The notes: a model not told the origin generated them from the sequence alone. Shown: positions 5,820 to 39,208, counted from the stretch's first letter. The stretch is 64,000 nt of DNA from Candidatus Doudnabacteria bacterium (GCA_003151625.1 PLYC01000021.1:16235-80234), one strand, 5' to 3'. Numbers and translations are program-made.

Positions 5820-7049
5820 TTATTCCATTTTATCTATAATCCTTTGCGCGGCTAAAACATAAGCGGCAGTTCTAAAAGTACAGTTGTATTTATTTTTCTG
5901 TTCCAAAACATCGGCAAACGCCAATTTAATTTGTTTGGATAATTTTTCCAGCACCTGTTCCTTGTTCCAGCTTTCACCCTTCATGTTCTGATACCACTCA
6001 TAGTAAGAGACGCACACTCCGCCGCTGTTGGCCAAAATGTCGGGAATAACAGCCACGCCATTTTTGGCAAAAATTATATCCGCCTCCGGTGTTGTTGGCC
6101 CGTTGGCCATCTCCACTATTAATTTGGCTTTAACTTTTTCGGCATTGTCTTTGGTTAAAACATTTTCCAACGCCGCCGGCACCAAAACATCGACAGGCAA
6201 TTCCAACAGCTGTTCATTGGAAATATTTTTTGCTCCCGGAAAATCTTTTAACGCTCCGCTGGATTTTTTGTAAGCCAGCACCTTTTCAAATCCTAAACCT
6301 TCAGGGTTATAAATCCCGCCTTTGGAATCCGATAACGCGACAATCTTGTAACCGATTTTTTCCGCCGCTTGGGCAAAAAAAGTAGAAACGTTGCCGAAAC
6401 CCTGAATGGCAACACTGGCATCTTTTGCCAAACCGACTACTTTGCTTTTTACTACTTCTTCAAAAACGTAAACACCGCCAAAACCGGTAGCCTCTTCCCT
6501 TCCCTGACTGCCGCCGTTGTCCAAAGACTTGCCGGTGAAAGTTGCTTTGGAGCTGTTAAAAGAGCGTTTTTGGTATTCGTCGAGCATCCAGCCCATAATT
6601 TGTCCGGTAGTGTTTACGTCCGGGGCGGGCACGTCTGTTTCCGGACCGATTATGGGATAAATCTTTTTTACGTAACCGCGGCTTAAACGTTCAAGTTCAG
6701 CCGCCGATAATTCTTTTGGGTTTACAATAATGCCGCCCTTGCCGCCGCCAAACGGCACGTTAACCACGGCGTTTTTAAAAGACATCCAAAAACTTAAAGC
6801 GCGCACCTCGTCAAGATTCACGTCCTGATGAAAGCGAATGCCCCCCTTGTAGGGCCCGCGGGCGTTATTGTGCTGGCTTCTGAAACCCGTAAAAATTTTT
6901 TGCGAACCATTATCCATTTTTAACGGAATGGCGACTTCCACGTAACGATCCGGATTTTTTAACTGTTCTACTTTGTCTTTATCCAAGTGGGCTGTTTCTG
7001 CGGCTTGCTGCAGCTGGGATTTGGCCGTCTCAAAAGGGTTTATTGTCAT
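5820..7049 (-). CDS. gdhA: Glu/Leu/Phe/Val (glutamate) dehydrogenase
   Basis: GPYKGGIRF, GGGKGG, DVPAPDVNT, QGFGNV, ANSGGV motifs. Confidence 0.95.
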   Translation of the reverse strand: MTINPFETAKSQLQQAAETAHLDKDKVEQLKNPDRYVEVAIPLKMDNGSQKIFTGFRSQHNNARGPYKGGIRFHQDVNLDEVRALSFWMSFKNAVVNVPFGGGKGGIIVNPKELSAAELERLSRGYVKKIYPIIGPETDVPAPDVNTTGQIMGWMLDEYQKRSFNSSKATFTGKSLDNGGSQGREEATGFGGVYVFEEVVKSKVVGLAKDASVAIQGFGNVSTFFAQAAEKIGYKIVALSDSKGGIYNPEGLGFEKVLAYKKSSGALKDFPGAKNISNEQLLELPVDVLVPAALENVLTKDNAEKVKAKLIVEMANGPTTPEADIIFAKNGVAVIPDILANSGGVCVSYYEWYQNMKGESWNKEQVLEKLSKQIKLAFADVLEQKNKYNCTFRTAAYVLAAQRIIDKME

Positions 7050-8026: not shown

Positions 8027-8494
8027 TTATTTTTCCAATTTCTTAATATTTTTAATATCTTTTTTTATCTGCGCTTTTAACTCAATCTCCGATGAAAACT
8101 TTTTAAACGGCCTAATAAACTTCCCTAATGTTATTACAATTTTTTTGCCGTACAGGTTTCCTTTAAAACCTATCAGATGAGCTTCAAGTTTGGGCAGATG
8201 ATGTTTATCGAGCGGACCAATTACGATCGCGGCCACATACATTTTGCGATGTAGCGGCGGCCACCCAACTTCGCCAAGGCTTCGTCGGGCAGGCTGGCCG
8301 CCATTATTTTGGAGGCCGATGGCCTCCGCTACAATCACACCTCCCGCATATACCCCCAGCCTAACCTTTAACCCCCGTCTGACATAATCTCTCCTATCCA
8401 AATTTGCCGTAGGAAATCCTAGTTTTTTGCCATAGCTGTCACCATGAACCACCCGGCCTGATACTTGAAAATTTCTGCTTGGTAATTTATTCAT
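8027..8494 (-). CDS. Stand-alone riboflavin kinase with internal palindromic insertion
   Basis: GRVVHG..GKKLGFPTAN, GVY, EAHL, LYGK, RPFKKF motifs. Confidence 0.9.
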   Translation of the reverse strand: MNKLPSRNFQVSGRVVHGDSYGKKLGFPTANLDRRDYVRRGLKVRLGVYAGGVIVAEAIGLQNNGGQPARRSLGEVGWPPLHRKMYVAAIVIGPLDKHHLPKLEAHLIGFKGNLYGKKIVITLGKFIRPFKKFSSEIELKAQIKKDIKNIKKLEK

Positions 8495-23938: not shown

Positions 23939-24013
23939 GGCGCTATCATCTAATGGTTAGGATAAGTGGTTTTCATCCACTAAATCGGGGTTCGATTCCC
24001 CGTAGCGCTACCA
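23939..24013 (+). tRNA. tRNA-Glu (TTC)
   Basis: GGCGCTA acceptor, anticodon arm AGTGG-TTTTCAT-CCACT, GGTTCGATTCC T-arm, encoded CCA. Confidence 0.95.
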
Positions 24014-25508
24014 AAGCAGAATTGCCGCCTTCAAGGGCGGTTTTTGCTTGATAGATATAAGAAAGTTTCGGGGTTGTAAAAGTTTGATAATTATAAATGG
24101 GCTTAATTGGAAAAATCATACCCATCAATTTTAATTTTTGCCAGTAGGTAGTTTTAGGCCAGAGTTTTGGCAAGTCGGCTATAAAGTCAAAAACAAAGCT
24201 CACAGTGTCATCAGCGTTAAAGTCCTGGGTCGCGCTGTCGCTAATTTCCAACTGCTTATCCGCCAGTAATTCCTTGACCTTGGCAAATTCAATTTTAAAA
24301 TCCTCATCGGGCAGTAAATCTCTTTTAACCAAATCCAGCAGTTTGGCTTTTTCCTGTTTTAAGTTTTCTATTTCCTTTTTGGCCTGTTCCTGCTGTTGAT
24401 TCTGCTGTTTAAGCCTGTTTTGGCCGACATCGGTTAGCACCTTTTTAAAGGTTTCCATTATTTCTTTGGTGGGCGTAATTTTGGCCAGACACTTGTCAAA
24501 CTCGTCCTCCAAAGTTTTTTTGGTGATGGCTTTTTTAGACGGGCAGTTTTTATTGTAACAGCGGTAGTAATAATACATACTGCCCCAGCGGTTTTCCGAA
24601 GTATGGGCGGTTAAAGGCCGGGAGCATAAGCCGCAGTCAACTTGGTGGCGCAGGGGGAATAACTCATTAGTCCGACTACCGGCGATAATGTCGCCTTTGG
24701 TGAATCGTTTTAAAAGCTTTTGGTTTTTGTAATAAATATCCTCGGTAATGAGCGTGGGGTGAGAACCTTTAAATTCGCCGCGCTTGTTGCAGATGAGGCC
24801 GAAATAAAATTTGTTGGTTAAAATTTTATGCATCAGCTGAAAGGAAATTTCTTTGCCCGAAGGCGAACGCAAGCCCATTTTGTTTACCTTAATCCGTAAT
24901 TCTTCCTGGGTATACATGCCTTTGAAATACTCTTCAAGCAAAAACTTAACAAGGCCAAACCGGGCAGGGTCTAAGATTATGGTTTTGTCGTGCTTGCCGT
25001 GGTTTTGGTTGAGGTAGCCAAAAGGCGCGCGGTGCGGGAAGCGGCCGGACTTAAGGCACTGGATTATGCCGTCGGTAACTCTCTCACTGCGAACATCGTT
25101 ATCAAGCTGGGCAATGCTAGCCATCATATTTCCCATAAACTTGCCAAAGGAATTTTCGCCAATGGCTTCGGTGGTGGAAATTAACTGGACGCTGATTTTA
25201 TCCAGCAGGCTTTTTATGGCCGAGTAGTCGTTGACGTTGCGGGACAGGCGGTCAACTTTGTTGACGATGACAAAGCTGATTTTGTTTTTCTTGTCGGCGA
25301 CAAACTTAAGCATAGCCTGGAGTCCGGGGCGGTCTGCGGTCTTGGCAGATTCGCCCTCATCGGAAAAAAGCTTAATGGCCTTAATGCCTTTGTCCTGTGC
25401 GTATTTTAAGCAGGCTTCTTTTTGGTTTCCGAGGCTAAAGCCGTCCACTTGGTCGGCGGTGGATACGCGGTAATAAATCACTCCCAGTTTTTGGTTTTCT
25501 TGGTTCAT
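23973..25508 (-). CDS. Large serine recombinase (integrase); 3' end reads through the tRNA antisense
   Basis: YYRVST..Q catalytic Ser, DRLSR, recombinase domain, Zn ribbon (CGLC...YYRC...C), coiled coil. Confidence 0.95.
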   Translation of the reverse strand: MNQENQKLGVIYYRVSTADQVDGFSLGNQKEACLKYAQDKGIKAIKLFSDEGESAKTADRPGLQAMLKFVADKKNKISFVIVNKVDRLSRNVNDYSAIKSLLDKISVQLISTTEAIGENSFGKFMGNMMASIAQLDNDVRSERVTDGIIQCLKSGRFPHRAPFGYLNQNHGKHDKTIILDPARFGLVKFLLEEYFKGMYTQEELRIKVNKMGLRSPSGKEISFQLMHKILTNKFYFGLICNKRGEFKGSHPTLITEDIYYKNQKLLKRFTKGDIIAGSRTNELFPLRHQVDCGLCSRPLTAHTSENRWGSMYYYYRCYNKNCPSKKAITKKTLEDEFDKCLAKITPTKEIMETFKKVLTDVGQNRLKQQNQQQEQAKKEIENLKQEKAKLLDLVKRDLLPDEDFKIEFAKVKELLADKQLEISDSATQDFNADDTVSFVFDFIADLPKLWPKTTYWQKLKLMGMIFPIKPIYNYQTFTTPKLSYIYQAKTALEGGNSALVALRGIEPRFSG

Positions 25509-25561
25509 AAAATTATTTTAAAATTAAGAATCTTCGGTCAAAATATTATACACCCGAAAAC

Positions 25562-25720
25562 TCATCCGGCAAAATTATTTTGCCTTTTTTCCTTGGCCCA
25601 CAGGTCAAAACCGATTTCAGCCAACTGATACATATCCTGCCGGAGCTGTTCCAGTTCTTCCCGGGTGAACCTGTTGCCGTAATCCCCAAGCGAATTTTTA
25701 AAATCATCCAGGGAAATCAT
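25562..25720 (-). CDS. 52-aa protein upstream of the integrase (not in ORF track)
   Basis: MISLDDFKNSLGDYGNRFTREELEQLRQDMYQLAEIGFDLWAKEKRQNNFAG; helical, same strand as the integrase. Confidence 0.65.
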   Translation of the reverse strand: MISLDDFKNSLGDYGNRFTREELEQLRQDMYQLAEIGFDLWAKEKRQNNFAG

Positions 25721-25737: not shown

Positions 25738-25913
25738 TTTAAAAGCATTGAATTTATTGGTAAATTTTCTTAATTCTCTAGTTAAGAGGTATATATCAAG
25801 TCAATGGAAATTAAAAAATATAATTATTTGGCCAAGAAACCTTGAAATTTAAAATCATTGAATTTATTAAGGAATTTTATTTATTTCCAAGATATGAGGT
25901 ATAGATCAAGTCA
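25738..25913. repeat. Two ~66-bp imperfect direct repeats with a 110-bp period
   Basis: tttaaaa.cattgaatttatt...gaggtata.atcaagtca at 25738 and 25848. Confidence 0.8.
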
Positions 25914-26247
25914 GCAAAAACATTAAGGTTTTAGTTGTTATGGTAATATGTTATCGCTTAGTAACAAGCTTACGGCCGCGCCCCTGCGGGGCGGCGGCCT
26001 GCGCCGTTGTCCCACTGGCCGCTTTGCTGGCCGTGGGACACGGCGTCTCAAGGTTGGATCTGGAAAATTGCGGTTAAATCAGCCGGGCAGTCAGGGCAGG
26101 TTCAGAGGGAAATTAGGCAGTAAACTTAAATGTTTGTCAAAGTCAAAATGGGGGCAAAATTAAAAAACAATCTTCACTACTTGAAGATTATCGTTTAGGT
26201 CAAAAACAAACAAAGAGTTAAGCGTGCTACATAAGAATTCTTCTGTG

Positions 26248-26991: not shown

Positions 26992-26994
26992 AAT

Positions 26995-27147
26995 TTATAA
27001 ATCTAAATCGTCAACATCAATACCCAAAGCTTCCATTCGGTTTAAGGCCTCATCCGGGTCATCCTGAAATTGCTCGGCCAGTTCTTCCTTTAAGCCGTCC
27101 TCGTCCAATTCCATTCTGATTTCGTCTTCCAAATCTTCAAGAGGCAT
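26995..27147 (-). CDS. 50-aa highly acidic protein (not in ORF track)
   Basis: MPLEDLEDEIRMELDEDGLKEELAEQFQDDPDEALNRMEALGIDVDDLDL; fills the gap between hsdR and the next ORF. Confidence 0.7.
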   Translation of the reverse strand: MPLEDLEDEIRMELDEDGLKEELAEQFQDDPDEALNRMEALGIDVDDLDL

Positions 27148-27154
27148 AAAATAA

Positions 27155-30100
27155 TTACGCGGTCACTAAACTCTTGTTGTCATAGTAGTTTTCATAAACA
27201 AAATTATAAACTTCAAATTTTTTGAATTCACAATCTTGCTCTGTGTAGGTAGGCGCGGGTAGTTTCTCAAATAATATATCTGATATGGCGCTCTTTACCC
27301 CCGAGCGGTTGGTTTCAAAATCTCTCCAATGTGGGACAAGAAGCGGCTTAAGATTTTCCAATAATTCGTGTGCCGTGCCTTTAATTTTAGCAACTTCATC
27401 CGGGTTAAGATTTTCTTTAACCAATAAGTCAAAAATTGCCAACTCCTCCTCATTTAAATTTTCCTTCACCGCACGTTGTTCTTCCACGCTCAAATCTTTT
27501 GCAAGGGAAATAAGATCGTCAAAAAGCTTGTCAACATCATGCGCGCCACTGTTATATTCCTGTAACAAAGCAAGTAAGCGATCCATAAATTTGGTTCGTT
27601 TTTTGTTCTTTCTTACCATTTCCGCTATTTTTTGTTCTAGCTCTGCGCTCATGGCCTCCACTTGAAGGTTTTTGTTTTCTAGACCCTCAAAAAATGTATG
27701 CAGTGCTTCGGAATCCAACTTACTTAAATCTTTCAACTTTTTATGTGGCGATATTACGTACTCACCAGCTTGAATAGACTTATCAAGTAAGTCCTCTAAA
27801 TCTTTTTTTACCTGGGTAACATCCACACTTTGAGCGCCTACATCTCGAATACGCGAAGCCAATACGCGAACGGCAGTCACTTCTTTATAATAATCTTCCG
27901 CGCTTGGATCCGGCAACACCGATCGGTAGGCACTTTGTAAATCCGAGGCTAAGTTTAAAAACTTTTTTTTAATTTCCTGTTTGCCAATTATTAAGTCGGC
28001 GAATTTTTCTAACAATAACAATTTTTGATCACCTGGCGCTTCCAACAAAGGCTTAAGTTCAATTTGTATAGCGCTCAAGAAATGTTTTACGGTTTTAAGT
28101 GTACTTTTTAAATCTTCTAAAAGCTCGTCTTTGCTTTTGATTATTTCATCTTTGTCTACACCGCTGGCCGCATACAATGCCAAGGCACGCTCAATATTTT
28201 TGAATACGCCAATGTAATCAACTATTAGCCCGTTCTTTTTGTCTGCGTCAGCTACGCGGTTGGCGCGGGCAATCGTCTGCATTAAAGTATGATTTTTGAG
28301 TGGTTTGTCCAAATATAATGTGGAGAGGTTTGGCACGTCAAAGCCGGTCATCCACATAGCGCAGACAAAAATAATCCGCAGATTGCTGTCGGCTTTCTTG
28401 AATTCTTCTTCCAAATTTCCGTGAATTATCCTATCCCGAATCGGCTTAACGTCAATCTCAAACTCTTCCATATCGGCGATTTCGTTCTGATTGTCGCCCA
28501 GACTTACCATTACCGCCATGTCAACATTTTCGTGCTGTTCCAGTTTTGCCAGTATTTTTTCGTGCTCACGTTCATCCTTGGCTCGGGAAAGGTCCATGCG
28601 CAATTTAGCGATGTAGCGATCCCACTCTTTTTTAACTTTGTCGTACATCCGGAACGTGGTTTTTTTATCAATACAAACCACCATGGCCTTGCCATTATAA
28701 CCCCGCCCAATGTAGTGTTCTACAATATCCCGAGCAATAACATTTAAGCGATCTTCGCGGGTAATAATTTCGTAAAAATTGGAGTACTCGCGTTCTAATC
28801 TTTCTTCTTCATCTTCATCCAAATCATACCTATCCATAAGCTGGCCTAACTGCTCCTCAAGGTTTTCGTTGACGTTTTTTAGCCTCGGCACCCTGTTTTC
28901 ATAATACAGCGGCACAGTTGCGCCATCGGCCACGGACTGGCCAAAATTATACACCGAAACATAACTGCCAAAAGTTTTTACCGTTTCGGCTTCACCGTCT
29001 GTCATTAGCGGAGTGCCGGTAAATCCAATAAAAGATGCATTGGGAAGTGCTTTTCGCATATTTAGCGCCATGCGGTCATATTGGGTACGGTGCGCCTCAT
29101 CGGTCATTACGATAATATCCTCTCGTTCGGAAATGGCGCTGGCGATATCTTGAAATTTCTGAATTGTCGTAAATACTTGCCTATGGTCTGCTCTCAGCAA
29201 TTTTTTAAGATCTTCTACAGAATCCGCATGTACTTCTTTTTCATACACCGCGCCAACATTGGCAAAATTATCGTATGCTTGTCCGTCCAACTGTTTCCTG
29301 TCTGTAACAATAACAAAAGTAAAATTACCGGTAAGTTTTCGCAAAACCTTTTGCGAAAGCCAAACCATAGAATATGATTTGCCCGAGCCTTGGGTATGCC
29401 AAAACACGCCAAGTTTGCCGTCCATTTGCTTACGATTAACAACATGTTCAAACGCCCGGTTAACACCGTAATATTGGAAATACCGCGGCACTATCTTTTT
29501 AGTCTCTCCCTTTGATTCATCAAACAAAATAAAATTTTCAAAAATATCCAAAAGCCTTGTTTTATCGCATACTCCGCTAATTATCGTAGACAAATCTGTT
29601 CTTGGTTTATTATCTTCGCTGTCGGCTTTTTTCCACTCATTGAAAAATTCGTAGGGTGCTGTCAGCGAGCCAAATTTATTTTCTATGCCATTGCTGATAA
29701 TAATTCCCATATTATACCAAAACAATTTGGGAATAGTATCTTTGTAATCGCGAATGTTGTCTTTATATGCATCCACCAAACTCTTGTGAGACGCTTTGAG
29801 TTCTAATAATACAAGCGGAATACCATTTACAAACAGCACAACGTCGGTTCTTCTGGTATACATTTCTCCTACGATCCACAATTGCGAAACGGCCAGAAAA
29901 TGATTATTCTTTGGATTTTCAAAGTCAAAAAACCTTACCCGCTCCGGCTTGCTTTCGCCGTTGGATTGGACGACATTCACGCTCACGCCGTCCCGTAAAA
30001 GTTTGTAAATTTCCTGATTAGCTTTAACCAAGCTTAAATTTGACCTGTCCCGCGTCAATGCGTCCATTGCCTGAACTAAAGATTCTTGTGACAAACCTTT

Positions 30101-30286
30101 ATTTAATTTTACCAGAGCAGGTAACAAAAACTTTTTCAATACCACTTCACCTTGATTTTCCCTTCCAAGCTTTAAATCATCCTCATCCGCAAATGCGTTT
30201 ATATGACAATCCGAATTGCCCCAAACTTCCTTAATAAGTTTGATGACAGTCTGTTCAACCAAATTGTCTTCAGAAAATGGGTTCAT
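27155..30286 (-). CDS. hsdR: Type I restriction enzyme R subunit
   Basis: D..LFVNGIPLVLLELK nuclease motif, HTQGSGKS, DEAHR, FTGTP, TGFD, QTIARANR. Confidence 0.97.
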   Translation of the reverse strand: MNPFSEDNLVEQTVIKLIKEVWGNSDCHINAFADEDDLKLGRENQGEVVLKKFLLPALVKLNKGLSQESLVQAMDALTRDRSNLSLVKANQEIYKLLRDGVSVNVVQSNGESKPERVRFFDFENPKNNHFLAVSQLWIVGEMYTRRTDVVLFVNGIPLVLLELKASHKSLVDAYKDNIRDYKDTIPKLFWYNMGIIISNGIENKFGSLTAPYEFFNEWKKADSEDNKPRTDLSTIISGVCDKTRLLDIFENFILFDESKGETKKIVPRYFQYYGVNRAFEHVVNRKQMDGKLGVFWHTQGSGKSYSMVWLSQKVLRKLTGNFTFVIVTDRKQLDGQAYDNFANVGAVYEKEVHADSVEDLKKLLRADHRQVFTTIQKFQDIASAISEREDIIVMTDEAHRTQYDRMALNMRKALPNASFIGFTGTPLMTDGEAETVKTFGSYVSVYNFGQSVADGATVPLYYENRVPRLKNVNENLEEQLGQLMDRYDLDEDEEERLEREYSNFYEIITREDRLNVIARDIVEHYIGRGYNGKAMVVCIDKKTTFRMYDKVKKEWDRYIAKLRMDLSRAKDEREHEKILAKLEQHENVDMAVMVSLGDNQNEIADMEEFEIDVKPIRDRIIHGNLEEEFKKADSNLRIIFVCAMWMTGFDVPNLSTLYLDKPLKNHTLMQTIARANRVADADKKNGLIVDYIGVFKNIERALALYAASGVDKDEIIKSKDELLEDLKSTLKTVKHFLSAIQIELKPLLEAPGDQKLLLLEKFADLIIGKQEIKKKFLNLASDLQSAYRSVLPDPSAEDYYKEVTAVRVLASRIRDVGAQSVDVTQVKKDLEDLLDKSIQAGEYVISPHKKLKDLSKLDSEALHTFFEGLENKNLQVEAMSAELEQKIAEMVRKNKKRTKFMDRLLALLQEYNSGAHDVDKLFDDLISLAKDLSVEEQRAVKENLNEEELAIFDLLVKENLNPDEVAKIKGTAHELLENLKPLLVPHWRDFETNRSGVKSAISDILFEKLPAPTYTEQDCEFKKFEVYNFVYENYYDNKSLVTA

Positions 30287-30298
30287 AGATTGTTGTAA

Positions 30299-31765
30299 TT
30301 ATTCTATCCATTCTGGTTTAATTTTCCAATCTGTTTTTGGTAAAATTCCAAAATTGGATAGACAAAGTGTATTTCTTGGATCATCCATTGAAAAAGTTAT
30401 GGTAAAACCTCTACCGTCGTTATCTTTTGGTGGTTTAATTTTTCTTTCTAAATAATATTTCAGAGCATAAACTACCTTGAATCCCTTTATTTTGAATTCA
30501 TCAACAAATTTTGTAATCCTATTCACTCCTTTCTTTATTTCTCTAGCCTTGTCTGAATTTACGAAATAAGTACAATCGTATACATAACTTCCAACGATAG
30601 AACAATTGCATAATCGCGCTTCAATTCTCCCATTTTTAAATTCTTTGGCTTCAAAAAGAAGTTTATCCGATTTGATAACAAATTCAATTGATTCATGGCC
30701 AGTACATTTTATATAGAAAAGACACCCCTGTACGTCTTTGTCATTCGACTCATTTTTTACCTCCGTAATAACCTCGTCTGTTTTGCCATAAAAAAGTATG
30801 GGGCGCCAAGCACAAGGACTGTTATATCGAGTATTTTTTTCCCTAAAAATTTTGCCATTAAATAACCATTTCCTTTGCAATTTTGCTAGTTCGCCAACAA
30901 AAAAATTAATATGATCTTTTTCCAGCATGACATTGATACCATGAACTCGCTCTTTTCTTCTTTCCCAAAATGCTTGCGAACCATTTGAAAAATGCATTTT
31001 AAACCCAACCAACCCCTCTTTCTTATCGGTCAGCAACTCAAATACTTCATAATTTGGCATTCGGTGTAGTTTCTTTGTTTTTTTAAAAGAGTACCTAATC
31101 TGCCTGTATAGATCAAAAAAAGCTTGGTAAAAAGCAAAGCAGCGGGATAATTTTTCTGACAGTTCCTCAAAGGAAACTACTTTTGGTAGTCCATTTTCAC
31201 AAATTCTAAATTCAGTATCAGTTAGAGAATAATCGGAATGATAAAATGCATTCCTTATGTCATCATCAAAAAATGAATTAATTTTACTAATCAATTCTTG
31301 CTCGCCAATCTTTTCCGCTTCATTTTTAAGTGTTACTAATTTTTTTGTTGGCGACTGTGGTCTTACATGAAATGGTTTCTTTTTCCCCAATGATTCTCCT
31401 GGGAAAGGGAAAGGAACATAGTTTTTACCTTGTGCGCACCCCAATAAATTATACAGTATTTGGTACGGGGCCGACATCTCAATCGAGTGACAATATATAA
31501 GTAAGGCAACTCGAAAAGAGGATTTTTTTATACCCTTTTTGCTAATTTTTTGAAGTATTTTACTAAACTCGATTAAGGCTTCTTGTGCCTCAATAAAAGG
31601 GTCCCATCCGCCATCTTGTACACCGCTTACACGAAGCAGTGTGTAAATATACTGTAGCCCATTTGTGTCGCGTGCACGTTCAAAAAGATGGTCAAGATAA
31701 CTACGATATTCTTGATAATATGCTTTTTGTGAATCTTGGGTCTTATATTTTACAGTTGTGCCCAT
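30299..31765 (-). CDS. Hypothetical protein with an RX4H (HEPN-like) motif, inside the hsd operon
   Basis: IRNAFYHSDY; located between hsdS and hsdR. Confidence 0.7.
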   Translation of the reverse strand: MGTTVKYKTQDSQKAYYQEYRSYLDHLFERARDTNGLQYIYTLLRVSGVQDGGWDPFIEAQEALIEFSKILQKISKKGIKKSSFRVALLIYCHSIEMSAPYQILYNLLGCAQGKNYVPFPFPGESLGKKKPFHVRPQSPTKKLVTLKNEAEKIGEQELISKINSFFDDDIRNAFYHSDYSLTDTEFRICENGLPKVVSFEELSEKLSRCFAFYQAFFDLYRQIRYSFKKTKKLHRMPNYEVFELLTDKKEGLVGFKMHFSNGSQAFWERRKERVHGINVMLEKDHINFFVGELAKLQRKWLFNGKIFREKNTRYNSPCAWRPILFYGKTDEVITEVKNESNDKDVQGCLFYIKCTGHESIEFVIKSDKLLFEAKEFKNGRIEARLCNCSIVGSYVYDCTYFVNSDKAREIKKGVNRITKFVDEFKIKGFKVVYALKYYLERKIKPPKDNDGRGFTITFSMDDPRNTLCLSNFGILPKTDWKIKPEWIE

Positions 31766-31773
31766 AAGTGTAA

Positions 31774-33024
31774 TTATTTTAGTTCTCGTTTTCCTGTGAC
31801 TAACTGGGGAATCAAAAGATCGCGAATCTGGGAAAGATTTTGATTTTCATCCTGCAAAGACAATACTAAATCAAAATGTTTTTTTACTAGGTGGCTAAAT
31901 TCATTAAGAATTTCTGAACTTGGAATAATGACCTTAACATCCTTAACTTGTATCGGACTTAAATTTTGCTGGGCAGCACCATTAGACATCCCCTCCAGTT
32001 TTTGCTGAAATCTCTTTTGCCTAAATAATAAGTAAATGTATTCTCTTTTATTTGTTCCCGTTGGATTTAATTTCGCGACTCGTTGATTTAACAAATAATC
32101 TGAACCATATACAACACAAATACGTCCAACATTCCCAGTCAATGAAAGTAGAATGTCACCACTATTCAAAATGCAATTTTCTGGCAATTTTGAAGGTAGG
32201 TCATCAATAAACGAGTCAAAATTTAATACAAATTTTCCATCATGAACATTTTTTATGGTAACTATTTTATACTTTCCGCTTTCTTGGTATGTTGACCCTT
32301 TGAAAGGAAACCCTGAAATAACATTTACGAGTTCACTAATCTTTCCAACTTTCCAACCCTCTGGAATCATACCGTATTCGGTGCCGCTGTTAATCATTTT
32401 TTCTTTTTCATGGCCGGGAAATTTGAATTTTATAAACCACTCGGTATAGAGAAGCTGGGACATTTGCTCCAGGGCTTTGATGCGTTTTTCGTTATTTTCT
32501 ATTAGGTCGTCGTAGGCGGAGAGGACAGAAGCAATGCGTGTTTGGGTTGGGAGCTCTGGAAGCTCAATTTGCAAACCGTAAAGTAAATTTATTGTGTACG
32601 CTTTTTGGGACGATCCAATAGTACATTTATTTAATTCTGATTTACCTTGCGGTGAAAGAAGCCAATAATATAACCATTGACCATTTATTCCATGAAAATT
32701 TCTAAACCATGTTAAATTTCCATCCTTAAAATAAAATTCTTCGTTCTCTTTTACCAAATACGGATTTCCGATTGTTCCGACAGAGGTCAACAATAGATCA
32801 CCCTTTTGAGGCACACCGTATTTGGCCTTTATTTCCTCAAATTTATCTCTAGAAATATATATTAAGTCGCTTACTTCTGCAGAGCTTCTTTGTTTTTCGC
32901 TGATTTCCTTTCCACGATAGAAAGGAACGCCTGATGATAAATACTCATCAGCAAAAATTCTCTTGCTTGAGGTTATTTCACAATAATCCTTAATTTTTAC
33001 TTTTTGAAAACTTACCATAATCAT
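31774..33024 (-). CDS. hsdS: Type I R-M specificity subunit
   Basis: Two TRDs; Q.RIASVLSAYDDLIENN and LSQIRDLLIPQLVTG conserved regions. Confidence 0.95.
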   Translation of the reverse strand: MIMVSFQKVKIKDYCEITSSKRIFADEYLSSGVPFYRGKEISEKQRSSAEVSDLIYISRDKFEEIKAKYGVPQKGDLLLTSVGTIGNPYLVKENEEFYFKDGNLTWFRNFHGINGQWLYYWLLSPQGKSELNKCTIGSSQKAYTINLLYGLQIELPELPTQTRIASVLSAYDDLIENNEKRIKALEQMSQLLYTEWFIKFKFPGHEKEKMINSGTEYGMIPEGWKVGKISELVNVISGFPFKGSTYQESGKYKIVTIKNVHDGKFVLNFDSFIDDLPSKLPENCILNSGDILLSLTGNVGRICVVYGSDYLLNQRVAKLNPTGTNKREYIYLLFRQKRFQQKLEGMSNGAAQQNLSPIQVKDVKVIIPSSEILNEFSHLVKKHFDLVLSLQDENQNLSQIRDLLIPQLVTGKRELK

Positions 33025-34602
33025 TTATAAAATACTTTCCCAATCGTCCTGGATATTTTTTTCCAGCTTGTGAGCTTCGACGGTTAAACCTGTAAATTCA
33101 CTCATTAATTCTTTCATTCGCGCGTTAAAGTCCACATCGCTCATTTCTTTTTCTATAATCTCCACATAACGCCCAGGATTAAGTGAGTAGTCGTTAGCTC
33201 GAATTTCCTCAAGAGTTGCAACTTTGCATCGGCCTTTAATGTCTTGATATTTTTCTTCGCCTTTTTCTTTGCGATAGCGGCGAACAACACCGGCGATTTC
33301 TTGTATTTGCTCATCTGTCCAGTCGCTATGAGCACGGTCAATTTCGGTAAAAATATCTTGCGCGTTTATAAATAAAACTTTGTTTTGCCGTTCGCTGCCG
33401 CTTTTGCGTTTGTCAAAAAACCACAAGGTACAGGAAAGTGTAGCGTTCATAAACATATTTGTGCCAACGGAAACAATTGCATCCACCATTCCGGCGTCTA
33501 CCATTTTTTTGCGGATTTCTTTTTCCGCATTTCCGGCATCACTGGAAGCGTTTGACATAACAAAGCCTGCCCGTCCTTGCGGGTTTAAAGCACTAGCAAA
33601 CATTTGCATCCATAAATAATTAGCGTTGCTGATTTCACCTTTACCAGTAAGCGGCAATCCTAAATTGTATCGCGGGTCGCCTTGAATTTTTGCTGGATCA
33701 ATTACAATTTGTTTGTTCTTGTCTTTGCCTTTTACATTAAACGGCGGATTTGCAAGGACAAAGTCAAAAGCGCCAACGCTGTTAAACGTATCGGTATAAA
33801 AAGAATTTACTTCCGCAATTTTACCCGACAAACCGTGAATAGCTAGGTTCATTTTGGCCGTGCGAATGTTGCTACTACCTTTTTCTTGGCCATACAGTGC
33901 AACTTCGTTCATAACTTGAGTTTTCTTTTCGGAATGCGCTTTAACAAAATTTGCAGACTGCACAAACATACCGCCGCTTCCGCAGGCGGGGTCGTATATT
34001 TTTCCATGGTATGGCTCAATAATTTCTACCAGTAATTTAACAATAGATTGCGGCGTAAAAAACTCGCCGCCTTTGGCTCCTTCGGCGCGCGCAAACTCAC
34101 CAAGGAAATATTCGTAAATTTCCCCGAATGCGTCACCCTCAATGTCATCGGGGATTTGATTAAAATTTTTCAGTAAGGTGATTAATATCTGACTATTTTC
34201 GCCTGGAATTTTGTGAAGCGAAGTATAATCTTGCGGCAAAACACCGGCAAGATCGGTATTTTCTTCTTCTATTGCCTTCATCGCATCATTAATTTTTTTG
34301 CCAATATTTGCACTCTCAGGTAGGCTCATTAAATAAGAATACGTGGCAATTTCTGGCAAATACAGAACACCCTTGGATTTATAATGGTCAGGCGTAATAG
34401 GTTTATTTCTTCCGGAATAAGCTTTAACAGCGCGCTCTGCAACAATCTCCGACTGGAATCTCTTAAAACGTACGTCCGCAAACTTAAGAAAAATAAGCCC
34501 TAAAATTGGCTCGGAAATTTCGTTTAATTTTAGCCCGGAGTTTGCCCGAAGCTGTACCGCCGCAGACCAAAGCCTTTCGTGAAGTTGTTTTCTGGTTGTC
34601 AT
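33025..34602 (-). CDS. hsdM: Type I R-M N6-adenine methyltransferase
   Basis: GEFFTP, YDPACGSGG, NPPF. Confidence 0.97.
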   Translation of the reverse strand: MTTRKQLHERLWSAAVQLRANSGLKLNEISEPILGLIFLKFADVRFKRFQSEIVAERAVKAYSGRNKPITPDHYKSKGVLYLPEIATYSYLMSLPESANIGKKINDAMKAIEEENTDLAGVLPQDYTSLHKIPGENSQILITLLKNFNQIPDDIEGDAFGEIYEYFLGEFARAEGAKGGEFFTPQSIVKLLVEIIEPYHGKIYDPACGSGGMFVQSANFVKAHSEKKTQVMNEVALYGQEKGSSNIRTAKMNLAIHGLSGKIAEVNSFYTDTFNSVGAFDFVLANPPFNVKGKDKNKQIVIDPAKIQGDPRYNLGLPLTGKGEISNANYLWMQMFASALNPQGRAGFVMSNASSDAGNAEKEIRKKMVDAGMVDAIVSVGTNMFMNATLSCTLWFFDKRKSGSERQNKVLFINAQDIFTEIDRAHSDWTDEQIQEIAGVVRRYRKEKGEEKYQDIKGRCKVATLEEIRANDYSLNPGRYVEIIEKEMSDVDFNARMKELMSEFTGLTVEAHKLEKNIQDDWESIL

Positions 34603-34653
34603 ACTAATTTATATTTAAAAATAACTGCTCGCGCTTTAATTTTTAGTCCTTTG

Positions 34654-35922
34654 CTATTTCAATAAATCCTCAAGCTCACAGGAGAGCAGGGCGGATTTGT
34701 TAAGCACGATTTGTTCTTTCTGGTTTAGGTTGTCCGCGGTAAGTCTAATAACTTTTGTGATTATAGCGTTGCCAATAACAACGTGGTTGGTTTTCTTTAA
34801 GTAGTTTTCGGTTTTTTCGTAAAACAGTGTTATAAAGCGCTTTAGCTTGTCGCTTAGTTTATCTTTCATATTTCCCGTAACCAATGCGACTACTTTTTCG
34901 TTTATTTCCGTCGGTATATTCCCCTCCGCGAATACTATCCAATAATCGCTTATGGCATAGGCAAAGCGCACTGGCATTTTATCTTTAGTTTCGTAAAAAT
35001 AAACAAAACGGTAATTCTGGGAACTAAAATCCTGGCCAATGGCTATTTCGCGCAACTCGCCGACTGTATTTATATCGTAAGAGTTTACAAGCCGGAGATA
35101 ATTTTCCAGCCAAGTTTCAAGCCAATGCGTAATAAAAGTCTGATCCACAAATAGCGGAGTTAAATCCTGCTGTAAGTTTGTTTTGTTTACTTTGTTCATT
35201 TGCACGGTCAGCCGGTCAAACAGCGCCTGCAAATGCGTAACATCAACCTCCTTGGCTTTAAGATAGTCCAAATCGGGGACAGTTTTCTTTTCCATATACC
35301 ACAGCAGGTCGTAAATGTCGCGGCCTTTTTCTTCGTATATTTCCTTGCCCACGCCACGCTGTCCACGTAAAAATATAGCGGCAATTTTACTGGCCATAAG
35401 CGCAGACATATTGTAAGTCTTTATTACGAATGACAGCTGGTCGTGGTTTACGGGTATCCGTTCCGTAACCGCTTTGGGAGCCGTAAAATGGTTCAAATCA
35501 ATTTTAACGTGCACCTGTTTTGAAGGGTGGCTCATTCCCAGCTCGTCGCCGATAATGAATTTTAAAAGCAACCCGCGGCCGTTGGTAATTTTTATGTTCA
35601 AAAGATCCGGCCCGGTGCTGTAGGTTTCCAAAAAATGTTCCTGCAACGCTTCCTTAAGGTTGTTAAGCAAGCTGTCGGTAGGGGCTTCCGCAATTTCAAA
35701 ATCCAAATCAACGGACATTCTGTTCAACTCATGGCAAATGCGCAAGGCGGAGCCGCCGTACATAGTCCAATTGCTGTAGACCGGGTGGTGATAAATAAAA
35801 TTTAACAGGTAATACTGCAATTCCTCTTTTAAGGCGTTGCGCTGAACTTCAATATCCACCTGTCCGTAACGAGACAGGTCTTCAAGTTTTCTTTTTAGTA
35901 AAATAATTATTTGGTTATTCAT
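34654..35922 (-). CDS. AbiEii-family nucleotidyltransferase toxin with C-terminal extension
   Basis: YGGSAL...RMSVDLDF, ASKIAA, GRDIYDL. Confidence 0.9.
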   Translation of the reverse strand: MNNQIIILLKRKLEDLSRYGQVDIEVQRNALKEELQYYLLNFIYHHPVYSNWTMYGGSALRICHELNRMSVDLDFEIAEAPTDSLLNNLKEALQEHFLETYSTGPDLLNIKITNGRGLLLKFIIGDELGMSHPSKQVHVKIDLNHFTAPKAVTERIPVNHDQLSFVIKTYNMSALMASKIAAIFLRGQRGVGKEIYEEKGRDIYDLLWYMEKKTVPDLDYLKAKEVDVTHLQALFDRLTVQMNKVNKTNLQQDLTPLFVDQTFITHWLETWLENYLRLVNSYDINTVGELREIAIGQDFSSQNYRFVYFYETKDKMPVRFAYAISDYWIVFAEGNIPTEINEKVVALVTGNMKDKLSDKLKRFITLFYEKTENYLKKTNHVVIGNAIITKVIRLTADNLNQKEQIVLNKSALLSCELEDLLK

Positions 35923-36535
35923 TGTTTAAATATTTTTTAATCATCTCATAAAATAAAGTCTGCTCCTTTTTGTCCATTTCTTCAATATCAATGCGCAGGT
36001 CGCGGATTAGCCCATCCACCATTTCCGGCTTTATCCCCCGAAACTGTCTGGTCTTAAAATACAACAGGTCAAACAATGCTTTGGAAGGCGCGGCAATAAA
36101 AAAATCAAATTTTCCTTTTACCAAAGAGAATCCGGAAAATAATTCTTTTTTAATTGAATTGTAGCCAAAGTTTCCGGCCCGCGTCTGGTAGTCTCTGGTA
36201 ACTTTTAGCGTAACCGAGGTAATAGTCTGGATGGCTTCGGTTGTTAGTTCGTAATACTGCAAAGCCGCCCAGGAGCTGACGTAAGACGGCGTCCTAATGA
36301 CGTTGGCCAGATAAAATTTGTAGGAAATATCCGCCCTGTTGTTTTCGTAAAAGTAAGTTGTTGTATACAGCCCTTTTTTAAACTGGATAATATCCTTGGA
36401 CTTCAAAGAGCGGCCGATATAGCTATCAACCGTGGTATTTTTTAGGCCGTACTGCTTGCTTAACTGGTAAATAGCGCTTTTGTTAAAATACGGCAAACTC
36501 TTGAGCTGTTCTAACAATATTTCTCTATATTTCAT
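35915..36535 (-). CDS. AbiEi-family antitoxin
   Basis: KKGLY, PSYVS..AALQYY, ITSVT, A.PSKALFD; overlaps the abiEii start. Confidence 0.88.
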   Translation of the reverse strand: MKYREILLEQLKSLPYFNKSAIYQLSKQYGLKNTTVDSYIGRSLKSKDIIQFKKGLYTTTYFYENNRADISYKFYLANVIRTPSYVSSWAALQYYELTTEAIQTITSVTLKVTRDYQTRAGNFGYNSIKKELFSGFSLVKGKFDFFIAAPSKALFDLLYFKTRQFRGIKPEMVDGLIRDLRIDIEEMDKKEQTLFYEMIKKYLNNE

Positions 36536-36577: not shown

Positions 36578-36630
36578 ATGGATAGTTATTTGGATATAAA
36601 TTTAAGAAAATACCCTTTATTTATGGGTAT

Positions 36631-36780
36631 TTTGCTTCCTTATGGCTTTTTATTGTAATTCTGGATCCCGTCCAGTCAAGGGTAAAACCAAATTATTTGC
36701 CATAGGCCATAAATTGGTTTTAATCCCGTTGACTGTCCAGGCGTTCCAGAATTTTGTTTTCGCCATAATCAGTAAGCAAA
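36631..36780. promoter_or_regulatory. ~150-nt hairpin, putative ssDNA promoter (copy 1)
   Basis: Five nested stems including cagtcaaggg/ccc(g)ttgactg; homologous to 38488-38632. Confidence 0.7.
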
Positions 36781-36787
36781 AAAGATT

Positions 36788-37270
36788 ATGGAATACCAAG
36801 TCAATGTCAATTATCGGTTTCAAGCAGTTAATGAAAAGGAGGCAAAAGAAAAAGCTGTAAAATATTTAGCTAACACCCTAAAAGTCCAGCCAATGTCCAA
36901 GGCAGTATGCAGTCCCCTTGAGATTGCCGACCAGTGCTGGGATTTTAGGAAAAAGGACAAGGAGCACTTTTGCGTGTTCTTTTTAAATACCCAAAACCAA
37001 ATTATCAGCCGGGAGATTATTAGCATTGGAACTTTGAACGCCAGTCTAATTCACCCGCGGGAATGTTTTAGGACGGCAATATCTAAAAACTGCGCCTCAG
37101 TCATTTTTGTCCATAACCATCCAAGCGGCAGTCTAGAACCCTCGGACGAAGACATTGCCGTAACCAAGCGCCTTAAAGATGCCGGCAAACTTATCGGCAT
37201 CGAAGTTTTGGACCATGTGATTGTAACGGCTGAGTCCCATAAAAGCCTTAAGGAACAAGGCTTGGTATAA
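36788..37270 (+). CDS. RadC-like JAB domain protein
   Basis: KEHF, GTLNASLIHPRE, HNHPSG...PS.ED, LDHVI. Confidence 0.93.
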   Translation: MEYQVNVNYRFQAVNEKEAKEKAVKYLANTLKVQPMSKAVCSPLEIADQCWDFRKKDKEHFCVFFLNTQNQIISREIISIGTLNASLIHPRECFRTAISKNCASVIFVHNHPSGSLEPSDEDIAVTKRLKDAGKLIGIEVLDHVIVTAESHKSLKEQGLV

Positions 37271-37276
37271 GCCAGA

Positions 37277-38062
37277 CTAACTCTTTGAGCCCTTTTCGGT
37301 TTCGATTTTGAATTCTTCAAATTTGTTTTTATATGCAATAAAAAGATCTTGGGCCAAATCCAAAATTACTTTGGTATGTTTTTCCATTGTCGGCGATATT
37401 CTCTGACGCCTTGTTCTATAGCCTCGAGTTTTTAATAAGTTATCCGAGGTATTTATATCCATCTCGTGAATAATTTGATTCCTTACGGTAAAAGCATCTT
37501 TAAGTGCGTTCATTCTGTCAGCAGTGAATATCTTATTTGTGCTTAACCCAGAAGCGTCAGAAACCATACACAGTTGTCCAACGGACTGGAGGCTGTCTTT
37601 GGTCATACTGCTTAAGTATTCTTTTAAAAATATTTCCCTTGGATTTTGGTCTATCAAAGCCAAGGCAACTGTATTTAATATCTTTTCCGGACTCTTTTTG
37701 TCTATACCATTTTTAACGTAATTTCTAAATTTTTCTTGGGCATTTTTGTCTACAGTTATCAATTTTGAAAGTTTGGTTTTGGTCAGCTGTTTAACAAATA
37801 CGTCAAGTCCAGCGCAAGCAAAAATCAGCATTGCACGATATAGGTCTTGTTGGTAATGGGTAGATGGGCCACCCTTTGAGCCGCGTCTGATAATTTTATA
37901 CAGCAAATTGAAGTTATTAACGGACTCTGCTGTCTTTAGCAAAATATTGTATTCAAAACTAAAAAGACTGTCGTCCTTCTCAGCCGAAAGGTGAATTTTA
38001 TAAAATCCTAATTCCCGTTTTTTAACAGCCTTTTTCGCCTTACTGGATTTAAGCTTTGCCAT
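37277..38062 (-). CDS. HEPN domain protein (RiboL-PSP-like)
   Basis: DLYRAMLIFACAGLD N-terminal helix; RNQIIH RX4H motif. Confidence 0.75.
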   Translation of the reverse strand: MAKLKSSKAKKAVKKRELGFYKIHLSAEKDDSLFSFEYNILLKTAESVNNFNLLYKIIRRGSKGGPSTHYQQDLYRAMLIFACAGLDVFVKQLTKTKLSKLITVDKNAQEKFRNYVKNGIDKKSPEKILNTVALALIDQNPREIFLKEYLSSMTKDSLQSVGQLCMVSDASGLSTNKIFTADRMNALKDAFTVRNQIIHEMDINTSDNLLKTRGYRTRRQRISPTMEKHTKVILDLAQDLFIAYKNKFEEFKIETEKGSKS

Positions 38063-38074
38063 AAAGATTTTACT

Positions 38075-38413
38075 TCAGGAAACATTATCGCCGTCAGATG
38101 GCATGGCCGTTGCAATTGCGTTGGTAAATAACGAATCACAGTGGACTAACAAAGACTCAATTAAACGCCCATGGTATATTGCGTAGACTTCGGAACTGAT
38201 AGTTTTGCTCTTAGGTTTAATAATAAAAAAGGTCAGCTCTTTGCCACTTTCTACTTCCGGACGGAACCACGCCAAATATTTCCATTGTTGCGCCGTATGT
38301 GTAAAATCGCCATCTTTATCATAAGACCAAGTGACTATTAGCCCGTCATCAATTGCCTTCTTAAAAGAGGATAGCACTTTATTCGGAGTGGAAGTTTCTA
38401 AATGTACGGCCAT
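38075..38413 (-). CDS. Hypothetical protein upstream of the HEPN gene
   Basis: 112 aa, TWSYDKDGDFTH...W...YHGR; own TTGACT-N17-TAAAAT promoter at 38438-38466. Confidence 0.8.
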   Translation of the reverse strand: MAVHLETSTPNKVLSSFKKAIDDGLIVTWSYDKDGDFTHTAQQWKYLAWFRPEVESGKELTFFIIKPKSKTISSEVYAIYHGRLIESLLVHCDSLFTNAIATAMPSDGDNVS

Positions 38414-38487
38414 AAAATTTTCATTATTTATAGCACTATTTTAAAACTTTACTAATATAAAGTCAATTTTGCAAAAAAACCAATTCC

Positions 38488-38632
38488 TTTGCTTCCTTAT
38501 GGCTTCTCATTATACTGGCCGTTTACGGCCGGTCAAGGGTAAATTTCATTTATTTGCCGTGGGCCATAAAATCAATTTAATCCCTTGACTGCCGTAACCT
38601 GCGGCCAGTATATGATTGCCATAATAAGTAAT
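38488..38632. promoter_or_regulatory. ~145-nt hairpin, putative ssDNA promoter (copy 2)
   Basis: ttatggc/gccataa, tatactggccg/cggccagtata and gtcaaggg/cccttgac stems. Confidence 0.7.
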
Positions 38633-38648
38633 CAAGAAAGGAGTTAAT

Positions 38649-38846
38649 ATGCCTAAAGTCAAAAAGGCAGTTAGCAAGAGGCAGGGAATCACGCCGGAGA
38701 TGAAGTTAAACATCATCAAGGCGTCCTTGCAGAGAAGTATCAATTACTTTATGGAATTGAGACACTCTGTAGACCCCTCTTCCAGCGATTATCACGATTT
38801 CGGAAAAAAGGTTTCCGCGTATATCGCTGTAAAGCAGACAGTCTAA
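38649..38846 (+). CDS. 65-aa hypothetical protein
   Basis: AAGGAG RBS; follows hairpin copy 2. Confidence 0.65.
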   Translation: MPKVKKAVSKRQGITPEMKLNIIKASLQRSINYFMELRHSVDPSSSDYHDFGKKVSAYIAVKQTV

Positions 38847-38898
38847 CAAACACCAAAACAAAAACAAAAATCTTTCTTTAATTTTTAACCTTATCCCA

Positions 38899-39057
38899 AT
38901 GAAAATTATGACTGCACAGTTTGTCTACGAGATTACCTGTCCAAGATGCCAATACACATGGAGCGCTACCAAGGAAGAGACCTTTGACCTTGATATTGTG
39001 TCCTGCTCCCAATGTGGTTCCTGTGAGCTTGAAATTACCAAAAAGTTAGAAGCTTAA
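38899..39057 (+). CDS. 52-aa zinc-ribbon protein (not in ORF track)
   Basis: CPRC...CSQC motifs. Confidence 0.6.
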   Translation: MKIMTAQFVYEITCPRCQYTWSATKEETFDLDIVSCSQCGSCELEITKKLEA

Positions 39058-39208
39058 AATCAAAACAAAAACAAAATTTTTTTATGGTCGCAAATTTGCT
39101 AAAACCTCCAAAAACGCGTTAAACTGAATTCATTAGCGGAATAAAATCACGGAATTGCCGTAATTCCTGGATTAAGAGGTTGTAATGCTGTGAACAGAAG
39201 GCTACCAC

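Follow-up and report, generated by a model that had tools for sequence, protein, structure and literature searches.

The window analysed here is a 64,000-nucleotide stretch of DNA from a Candidatus Doudnabacteria bacterium (GCA_003151625.1 PLYC01000021.1:16235-80234). It contains a 15.2-kb island at a tRNA-Glu gene, in which the order of features is tRNA-Glu, a serine recombinase, a type I restriction-modification (R-M) system, AbiE, a first hairpin followed by radC, a HEPN gene, a gene for a protein of 112 amino acids (aa), and a second hairpin followed by the open reading frames (ORFs) ORF65 and ORF52. The two hairpins at the right end of this island, HP1 (36630..36781) and HP2 (38485..38642), both assigned to the minus strand, are the subject of this study. 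An earlier interpretation made without database searches (the sequence-only reading) held that they are promoters acting in single-stranded DNA (ssDNA), the minus strand then serving as the template for radC and for the ORF at 38649 (ORF65). The anatomy of 80 homologues and the polarity of related elements encoding a rolling-circle initiator (Rep) argue strongly for this proposal at the level of sequence, and we consider it probable, at roughly three chances in four, that the hairpins constitute a new sequence family of ssDNA promoters with an unusually clear anatomy.

Two homologous hairpins and their promoter boxes

Both elements fold into a single long hairpin on either strand, with DNA folding energies of -32.7 kcal/mol (plus strand) and -36.3 kcal/mol (minus strand) for HP1 (z -6.9 and -8.1, respectively) and of -41.3 and -40.3 kcal/mol for HP2 (z -8.4 and -8.5), and none of 200 shuffled sequences matched the fold on either strand. 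The two are 72% identical over 158 nt, which bears out the original claim of two homologous hairpins of approximately 150 nt, and their plus strands are also stable as RNA (z -7.1 and -8.8). The accompanying description of conserved stems with divergent interiors holds only in part: divergence is indeed present, in the spacer stem and the A/T-rich central stem, but the apex is conserved.

On the minus strand, the left (non-template) arm of HP1 reads TTGACT-16-TACAAT (36652..36679) and that of HP2 reads TTGACC-16-TATAAT (38509..38536), precisely the boxes previously assigned to 36679-36652 and 38536-38509, and these arms match the promoter consensus at 10-11 of 12 positions. The right (template) arms, given here in plus-strand letters, contain TTGACT at 36729 and 38585, while a -10 of the form T-A-n-n-n-T is absent at the register of the stem, in agreement with the earlier observation that these arms possess a -35 but a poor -10. 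In HP1 (36729..36753) the 18-nt spacer is followed by T at -12 and then by no -10 consensus; in HP2 (38585..38643) an 18-nt spacer is followed by TATATG, and the 5' leader is predicted to begin at about 38619. HP1, a model member of the family, is a predicted ssDNA promoter when the minus strand is single-stranded, its -10 being paired at -12 in the fold and open from -11 (pairing probability 0.01). The predicted transcription start is close to a conserved CCATAA that precedes the ATG by about 25-30 nt and is located at 36763 in HP1. The Shine-Dalgarno sequence AAGGAG at 38638-38643 belongs to HP2, and no AAGGAG ribosome site is present in HP1.

The hairpin family and its proposed split promoter

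Seven copies of the hairpin, HP1 and HP2 included, were found in the genome (assembly G000), all of the other five likewise standing before radC or ORF65. Two of these lie on contig C3, adjoining genes for a Replic_Relax-like protein and a coupling protein, and three on contig C23, adjoining genes for Replic_Relax, a coupling protein, VirB4, PrgI and a pilin. The hairpin was detected by blastn in 8 of 60 relatives, every one of them within the same taxonomic family (8/36), and by a covariance model in none of 150 other genomes of the phylum; the hairpin family looks narrow, or else the covariance model is too specific. A pattern search built on the central stem, with neither the -10 nor the TTGAC boxes in the pattern, matched 25 stretches of genome contigs and 66 metagenomic ones. 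Fourteen of 24 genome loci were confirmed by a hidden Markov model (HMM), with titles naming Doudnabacteria (6), Saccharibacteria (4), the Patescibacteria group (2) and unnamed bacteria (2), and the 10 unconfirmed loci were set aside. Following removal of truncated and duplicate sequences, 164 HMM hits yielded 81 distinct full-length copies, chiefly from Doudnabacteria and metagenomes, of which 80 were scored, the right -35 of one copy being impossible to anchor. The same boxes and bubble recur in four divergent copies that are not among the 81 and have a shorter central stem.

In the left arm, read on the minus strand, T at -12, A at -11 and T at -7 are present in all 80 copies while positions -10, -9 and -8 vary, the base at -10 freely so (A 30, T 30, C 19, G 1). 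In 78 of the 80, the facing base on the opposite arm is complementary at -12 but not at -11, as it is in 52 of 54 once the set is thinned to <90% identity; the mean predicted pairing is 0.87-0.99 over -19 to -12 (0.93 at -12), drops to 0.07 at -11 and recovers to 0.75-0.88 over +1 to +4. PMC4496690 describes an open complex in which the -35 remains double-stranded, the pair at -12 probably persists and the A at -11 of the non-template strand is flipped out, and a hairpin that is paired at -12 and mismatched at -11 would thus mimic an open promoter. The -35 sequence TTGAC is found in the template arm of 77/80 copies versus the non-template arm of 45/80, the former count being partly circular as the right-arm -35 was located via a TGAC pattern. 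The spacers are offset in 49 of the 80 (16 nt in the non-template arm, 18 nt in the template arm). Read as duplex DNA, a single left arm of the 80 has a -35 matching at 5/6 positions or better at a 17-nt spacer, and a single right arm has T-A-n-n-n-T at any spacing of 15-19 nt.

Compensatory changes among homologues, which had been named beforehand as a test of the proposal, are present: double changes occur at 16 of 26 consensus pairs (55 sequences) and are densest in the stem adjoining -12, where the six pairs next to this position show double changes in 17-29 of the 55 sequences. Furthermore, the minus strand is the more stable of the two in 70 of 81 copies when folded as DNA and in 61 of 81 with RNA parameters. 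A Shine-Dalgarno sequence lies at the base of the template arm in most copies, and regions 2.3-2.4 and 4.2 of the host RpoD are canonical.

Searches elsewhere were negative. No hairpin was recovered by blastn from 72,556 plasmids or 50,697 phages; one pattern match among viral contigs was not confirmed by the HMM, and 53 viral contigs with a distant Rep gave zero HMM hits, a query with a single Rep protein also being empty. A search for RadC in 300 genomes of the phylum returned mostly full-length RadC, with no HMM hairpin at those loci, and a short RadC at C3:99324 has no hairpin of the family. Within the window, tRNA is the only Rfam family at gathering score, and nothing relevant was found at E<=10. 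A sequence-independent scan for split promoters was dropped as evidence, having caught 48 of the 81 known members while 13 of its 15 genome matches were not family hairpins.

Strand polarity, proposed mechanism and competing explanations

In M13 and pC194 the rep-coding strand is the displaced strand. When the hairpin loci were assembled into 66 groups, 22 had a detectable initiator, and in all 22 it lies downstream and on the opposite strand; these initiators comprise 12 modules with relaxase and type IV coupling protein (T4CP) and 10 rolling-circle Reps of family PF23343 (REP_ORF2-G2P), with one inovirus-like. In a search anchored on Rep, a hairpin was present within 1.5 kb at 6 of 19 Rep loci, most of which were already in the hairpin set, and in 6/6 it folds on the rep-coding strand. 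The strict motif ACTTGA(T/A) occurs upstream of rep on the rep-coding strand at 10/19 loci versus 1/19 on the other strand; PMC10378824 gives CTTGATA, located upstream of rep, as the nick site of the pC194 type, and the pC194 origin sequence is printed in PMC7072734. In Rep elements it is the rep-coding strand that folds, the one expected, by analogy, to be displaced. If the nick falls on the rep-coding strand, a location on the single strand fits 10 of 10 Rep groups and 6 of 6 Rep-anchored loci.

The fold, its covariation, the split anatomy of the promoter and the fixed orientation against the relaxase or Rep gene are direct observations; the following course of events is the one we favour. 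A rolling-circle Rep or a relaxase would supply the single strand, upon which the minus strand would fold so that the -35 of the template arm is partnered with the -10 of the non-template arm, the DNA being unpaired from -11. Host RNA polymerase, presumed to bind at the folded hairpin, would transcribe radC or ORF65-ORF52 only during the single-stranded phase of the element. Second-strand synthesis would then shut the promoter off, since in the duplex A-11 is missing from the rightward arm and the leftward one is impaired by a short spacer or by decay of its -35. Such promoters would extend the ssDNA-promoter idea to Patescibacteria and, via Rep elements, beyond conjugation. The 80 natural variants suggest a compact design of 150 nt in which -12 is paired, -11 is open, the best -35 lies on the template arm and the best -10 on the other, while the offset spacers appear to weaken both duplex readings.

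The Frpo and ssi promoters, as presented in PMC9849209 and PMC11541004, adopt their fold on the strand that is transferred and direct the expression of early genes, and ssDNA promoters fall into three sequence classes with mapped starts in the portion of PMC12672017 that deals with them. The Patescibacteria hairpins resemble those of F, ColIb-P9 and pESBL (classes 1-3) in being long imperfect hairpins directly upstream of small mobile-element genes, in occurring as several co-oriented copies, in the -35 and -10 rebuilt by folding, and in the A/T-rich stem upstream of the -35. They differ in being shorter (about 150 nt), in their near-consensus boxes, and in their location in integrative elements with relaxase as well as rolling-circle Rep modules; they are known here from sequence alone. 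The comparison with Frpo/ssi called for by the sequence-only reading thus stands with regard to architecture (a stem-loop upstream of a gene, with rebuilt boxes) and fails with regard to sequence, homology to the F leading region (Frpo/ssi class 1, klcA class 2) not being significant (best nhmmer E 0.096) and class 3 not having been located with certainty for this comparison. The klcA hairpin and Frpo2 of F share with the Patescibacteria family an ACCC just before the -35 (6958-6987 and 8397-8414 of the F plasmid, L160), again without significant homology, possibly as a shared design rule. In the literature surveyed, the ssDNA promoters that have been tested are those of enterobacterial conjugative plasmids, and candidates have been predicted in a few other conjugative elements. 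A literature search, the scope of which did not extend to subscription papers and supplements, found no publication describing ssDNA promoters for Patescibacteria or for Rep-type integrative elements.

Several points weigh against the hairpins being ssDNA promoters. Apart from the circularity in the -35 count, the homologues are related and the counts overstate their independence; the left arm is a fair leftward duplex promoter, with a 5/6 -35 at a 16-nt spacer in 45/80 copies; and a test of the folding strand by wobble pairs was uninformative (G-T 61 versus A-C 54). HP2 itself departs from the pattern, as the TATATG of its right arm leads to predicted pairing at -12, -11 and -10 (probabilities 0.99, 0.97 and 0.91), making it the only -11-paired copy among the 80 and possibly a weakened one. 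One RNA run contained identical contigs at 38561-38711 and 38800-38950 at a depth of about 2, which cannot reveal transcript starts or strand, and the first of these begins upstream of the predicted start, so that it either reflects DNA carry-over or does not fit the prediction. Additionally, 44 of the 66 groups have no initiator in the DNA covered. In relaxase elements a conserved non-coding block lies upstream of the T4CP gene, and given F-like polarity the transferred strand would be the non-template one; in pLS20, according to the relevant part of PMC8708921, a non-template transferred strand argued against ssDNA promoters.

The alternative that survives best, which we nevertheless regard as improbable, is that the hairpins are mainly single-strand origins (sso/ssi) at which RNA polymerase lays down the primer for the second strand, with mRNA being incidental. 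An identical anatomy would be expected, simple Rep elements have one hairpin, rolling-circle elements need an RNA-polymerase-primed sso (a section of PMC5714925), and Frpo transcripts prime in vivo (bioRxiv 10.64898/2026.01.09.698686, in part). The sso/ssi of rolling-circle plasmids and ssDNA phages likewise let RNA polymerase enter on a displaced strand that has folded, which in the PF23343 elements would be the one coding for rep. However, the Patescibacteria hairpins are repeated, many elements having 2-3 tandem copies, each directly before a gene, most with the Shine-Dalgarno sequence mentioned above; and they lie downstream of rep, while an sso is placed upstream of the double-strand origin (dso) in the part of PMC10378824 concerned. 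Judged by first-codon pattern, the gene after the hairpin is RadC or ORF65 in 58 of 81 copies, and the other readable ones are mostly ORF65 homologues. Origin and promoter are compatible because Frpo does both, and by analogy priming may be a second function of these hairpins.

Less likely again is the possibility that they are ordinary duplex promoters firing leftward, towards defence genes or an antisense RNA, within a protein-binding inverted repeat or cruciform. The genuine consensus matches of the left arms (10-11/12) would be explained, both copies in the window point at co-directional defence genes, and 22 of 77 copies have, no more than 90 nt upstream, a terminator-like stem that could stop a leftward transcript. 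The defence genes, however, already have promoters of their own, at 36576-36548 (abiEi) and 38466-38438 (the 112-aa gene), as had been claimed at the outset; the nearest upstream ORF is wrong-stranded in 39 of 66 cases by a crude longest-ORF test; and the covarying stems, the conserved -11 mismatch and the better -35 on the other arm are left unexplained. Leftward duplex activity is possible as a side effect.

We attach very little credence to a third explanation, namely that the hairpins are structured leaders (attenuators or translational switches) on a plus-strand mRNA. The plus strand folds well as RNA with the ribosome site covered by the base of the stem, and the Rfam radC motif (RF01754), listed for Proteobacteria (PMC2864571), is also a structured non-coding element associated with radC genes. 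Yet no Rfam family matched at gathering score, and the RF01754 covariance model, the second comparison proposed with the original claim, gave no match at E<=10. The EGeRS1 elements of pLS20 are likewise structured, repeated and placed immediately ahead of the ribosome sites of establishment operons, but they measure 400-750 bp, have no recognisable promoter in the fold and lie on a non-template transferred strand (as far as described in the relevant part of PMC8708921), in contrast to the 150 nt and invariant -10 of the Patescibacteria hairpins. Moreover, even under RNA parameters it is the minus strand that gives the stabler fold (61/81), the invariant bases are the sigma70 -10 positions of the opposite strand, and a conserved rightward promoter upstream was not seen.

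The consensus boxes of attC sites are GTTRRRY/RYYYAAC. A role as ssDNA recombination or transfer signals (attC-like cassette sites or oriT) is equally hard to credit: the tandem arrays with variable inserts between copies, the tyrosine recombinases near some arrays and one metagenome contig joining HP1 to HP2 (run X5, side 54 nt) are in its favour, but the hairpins stand before genes rather than after them, their ends lack the attC boxes, a separate nick-site-like motif lies upstream of rep, and the X5 join is equally expected from a one-hairpin relative or from homologous recombination between copies.

Genes behind the hairpins and the host island

HP1 is followed by a short RadC-like JAB-domain protein of 160 aa (36788..37270, plus strand; PF04002, E 3e-43; TIGR00608), in which the E, HxH and D of the JAB motif are visible. 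HP2 is followed by ORF65 (38649..38846, plus strand), a basic two-helix protein of no known family (model pLDDT 86) with 51 close homologues, none of them named. It has no fold match in the PDB at E<=0.001, and its sole atlas match (0.83) is an unnamed cluster from Doudnabacteria. Simple Rep elements carry, after their one hairpin, a 55-aa ORF that is distantly homologous to ORF65 (hhalign 93.7%, E 2e-7), and the two together represent the commonest gene behind hairpins besides RadC. ORF52 (38899..39057, plus strand), a CxxC-CxxC zinc ribbon, is co-oriented behind ORF65; its matches in Pfam and NCBIfam are all sub-threshold and its atlas neighbours are generic zinc ribbons. An assignment of ORF52 to Lar (E 0.023) misses the cut-off and was not counted. 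The products of radC, ORF65 and ORF52, which the sequence-only reading took for establishment or anti-defence factors, are presumed to be early establishment factors, an anti-defence role being conjectural, and the hairpin would mark both candidate early genes (the ORF65 family, short RadC) and Patescibacteria mobile elements that bear a relaxase or Rep; most type IV secretion system (T4SS) clusters of Patescibacteria lack a relaxase according to part of PMC12102498. Between the two hairpin units lies a cargo gene for a RiboL-PSP-HEPN protein (37277..38062, minus strand; PF18735, E 7e-9), a slot filled by other genes in relatives, and the 112-aa hypothetical cargo gene, which belongs to no family (38075..38413, minus strand).

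The left end of the island is formed by the integration site tRNA-Glu(TTC) (23939..24013, plus strand), inside which the gene for a large serine recombinase ends (23973..25508, minus strand; PF00239, PF07508). The defence cargo (27155..36535, minus strand) consists of the type I R-M system (HsdR, a 488-aa hypothetical protein, HsdS and HsdM) and AbiEii/AbiEi. At the right end, an attR-like terminal segment (39062..39207, plus strand) closes with GGCTACCA, a copy of the tRNA 3' end. The alignments of three related elements (L085, L074 and L104) and of contig C27 all stop at 39207, and the divergence of these four sequences directly after the tRNA 3'-end copy fixes the right boundary. The recombinase, the tRNA-Glu and the GCTACCA repeat at 39201-39207 are hallmarks of an integrative element. 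The sequence AGCGCTACCA at 38962 was rejected as attR, as related elements align through to 39207. The terminal segment also contains an outward promoter-like TTGCTA-18-TAAACT and a variable hairpin, and a solo copy of it, with no cassette, occurs at G000:C27:3335-3475 and ends in CCACCA.

As had been claimed, the island is devoid of transfer genes, neither a relaxase, a T4SS nor a Rep being found among its ORFs or by tblastn; Rep was likewise not found in the 34-contig G000 assembly, and four sequencing runs at a depth of 1-5 revealed no attP, attB or circular junction, observations that weigh against the ssDNA-promoter account as well as against mobility. A clean attB is absent in that the tRNA-Glu beside a phosphoesterase gene in two relatives of the same genus (L149 and L150) is a different, oppositely oriented one, which suggests local rearrangement. 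Two candidate rolling-circle nick sites are nevertheless retained: dso-like A (25895..26045, minus strand), a GC-rich hairpin followed by TGACTTGATCTATACC, and a second copy, dso-like B (25785..25805, minus strand), which has TGACTTGATATATACC and no GC hairpin. The heptamer TGACTTGAT lies at 25911, with the GC hairpin, and at 25801, both times on the minus strand, i.e. the strand of the promoter fold. As the heptamer alone is common (6 in the island), the weight is carried by the hairpin and by homology, both sites aligning with DNA upstream of rep in two sister elements. The island recombinase shares 72-82% identity with its counterparts in L030 and L113, the former of which carries a Rep. 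L085, L074 and L104 likewise have no Rep at the end they share with the island.

The island is probably descended from a Rep-bearing integrative element and, since nick-site-like sequences are kept but no Rep is present, is either helper-dependent or no longer mobile; islands that lack a relaxase and are mobilised by helpers are widespread among other bacteria (bioRxiv 10.64898/2026.01.13.699239). Of the original claim that it moves as ssDNA, the two retained nick-site-like sites are in favour and the missing relaxase and Rep against, and continued movement of this kind is to be entertained only tentatively. A broader idea appears somewhat more doubtful still, namely that a portable 'ssDNA start-up cassette' is shared by conjugative, rolling-circle integrative and inovirus-like elements of Patescibacteria and by Rep-less islands as helper-nicked satellites. 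Were it correct, a pre-melted split promoter with RadC, ORF65 and the zinc ribbon would allow transcription of the incoming or displaced strand ahead of its copying, and defence islands devoid of Rep would travel as single-stranded satellites nicked in trans by a helper Rep.

A number of minor observations concern the same elements. A small ORF just upstream of the recombinase (25548-25720) is conserved in L030, L113 and two relatives and is a possible directionality factor, and a small acidic ORF of about 51 aa after hsdR (26992-27150) has copies in two other G000 elements and near hairpins in relatives. At least five further large serine recombinases are encoded in the 1.5-Mb genome (contigs C1, C3, C9, C21 and C26), and contigs C1, C9, C21 and C26 contain no hairpin. 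Frpo/ssi promoters lie in the leading region beside oriT, and a search for an oriT here yielded only a candidate, that of the Replic_Relax elements. This candidate is the block upstream of the T4CP gene (G000:C3:91582-92300; also in L035, L045, L064 and at the end of C23), which has no match in the 15.2-kb island and is made up of a tract poor in G and rich in ACTAA and, after it, a GC hairpin with runs of G on both sides. A layout resembling a DGR lies behind the hairpin cassette of a conjugative element (G000:C23:7457-10505, L002), with an Avd-like gene, a 231-aa gene and a reverse transcriptase, related reverse transcriptases being present in L036 and L041. Finally, the whole contig L061 is inovirus-like, with a Zot-family ATPase, a PF23343 Rep and a tyrosine integrase, and its cargo of two hairpins, radC, ORF65, ORF52 and methyltransferase-like genes lies on the strand opposite to the core genes.

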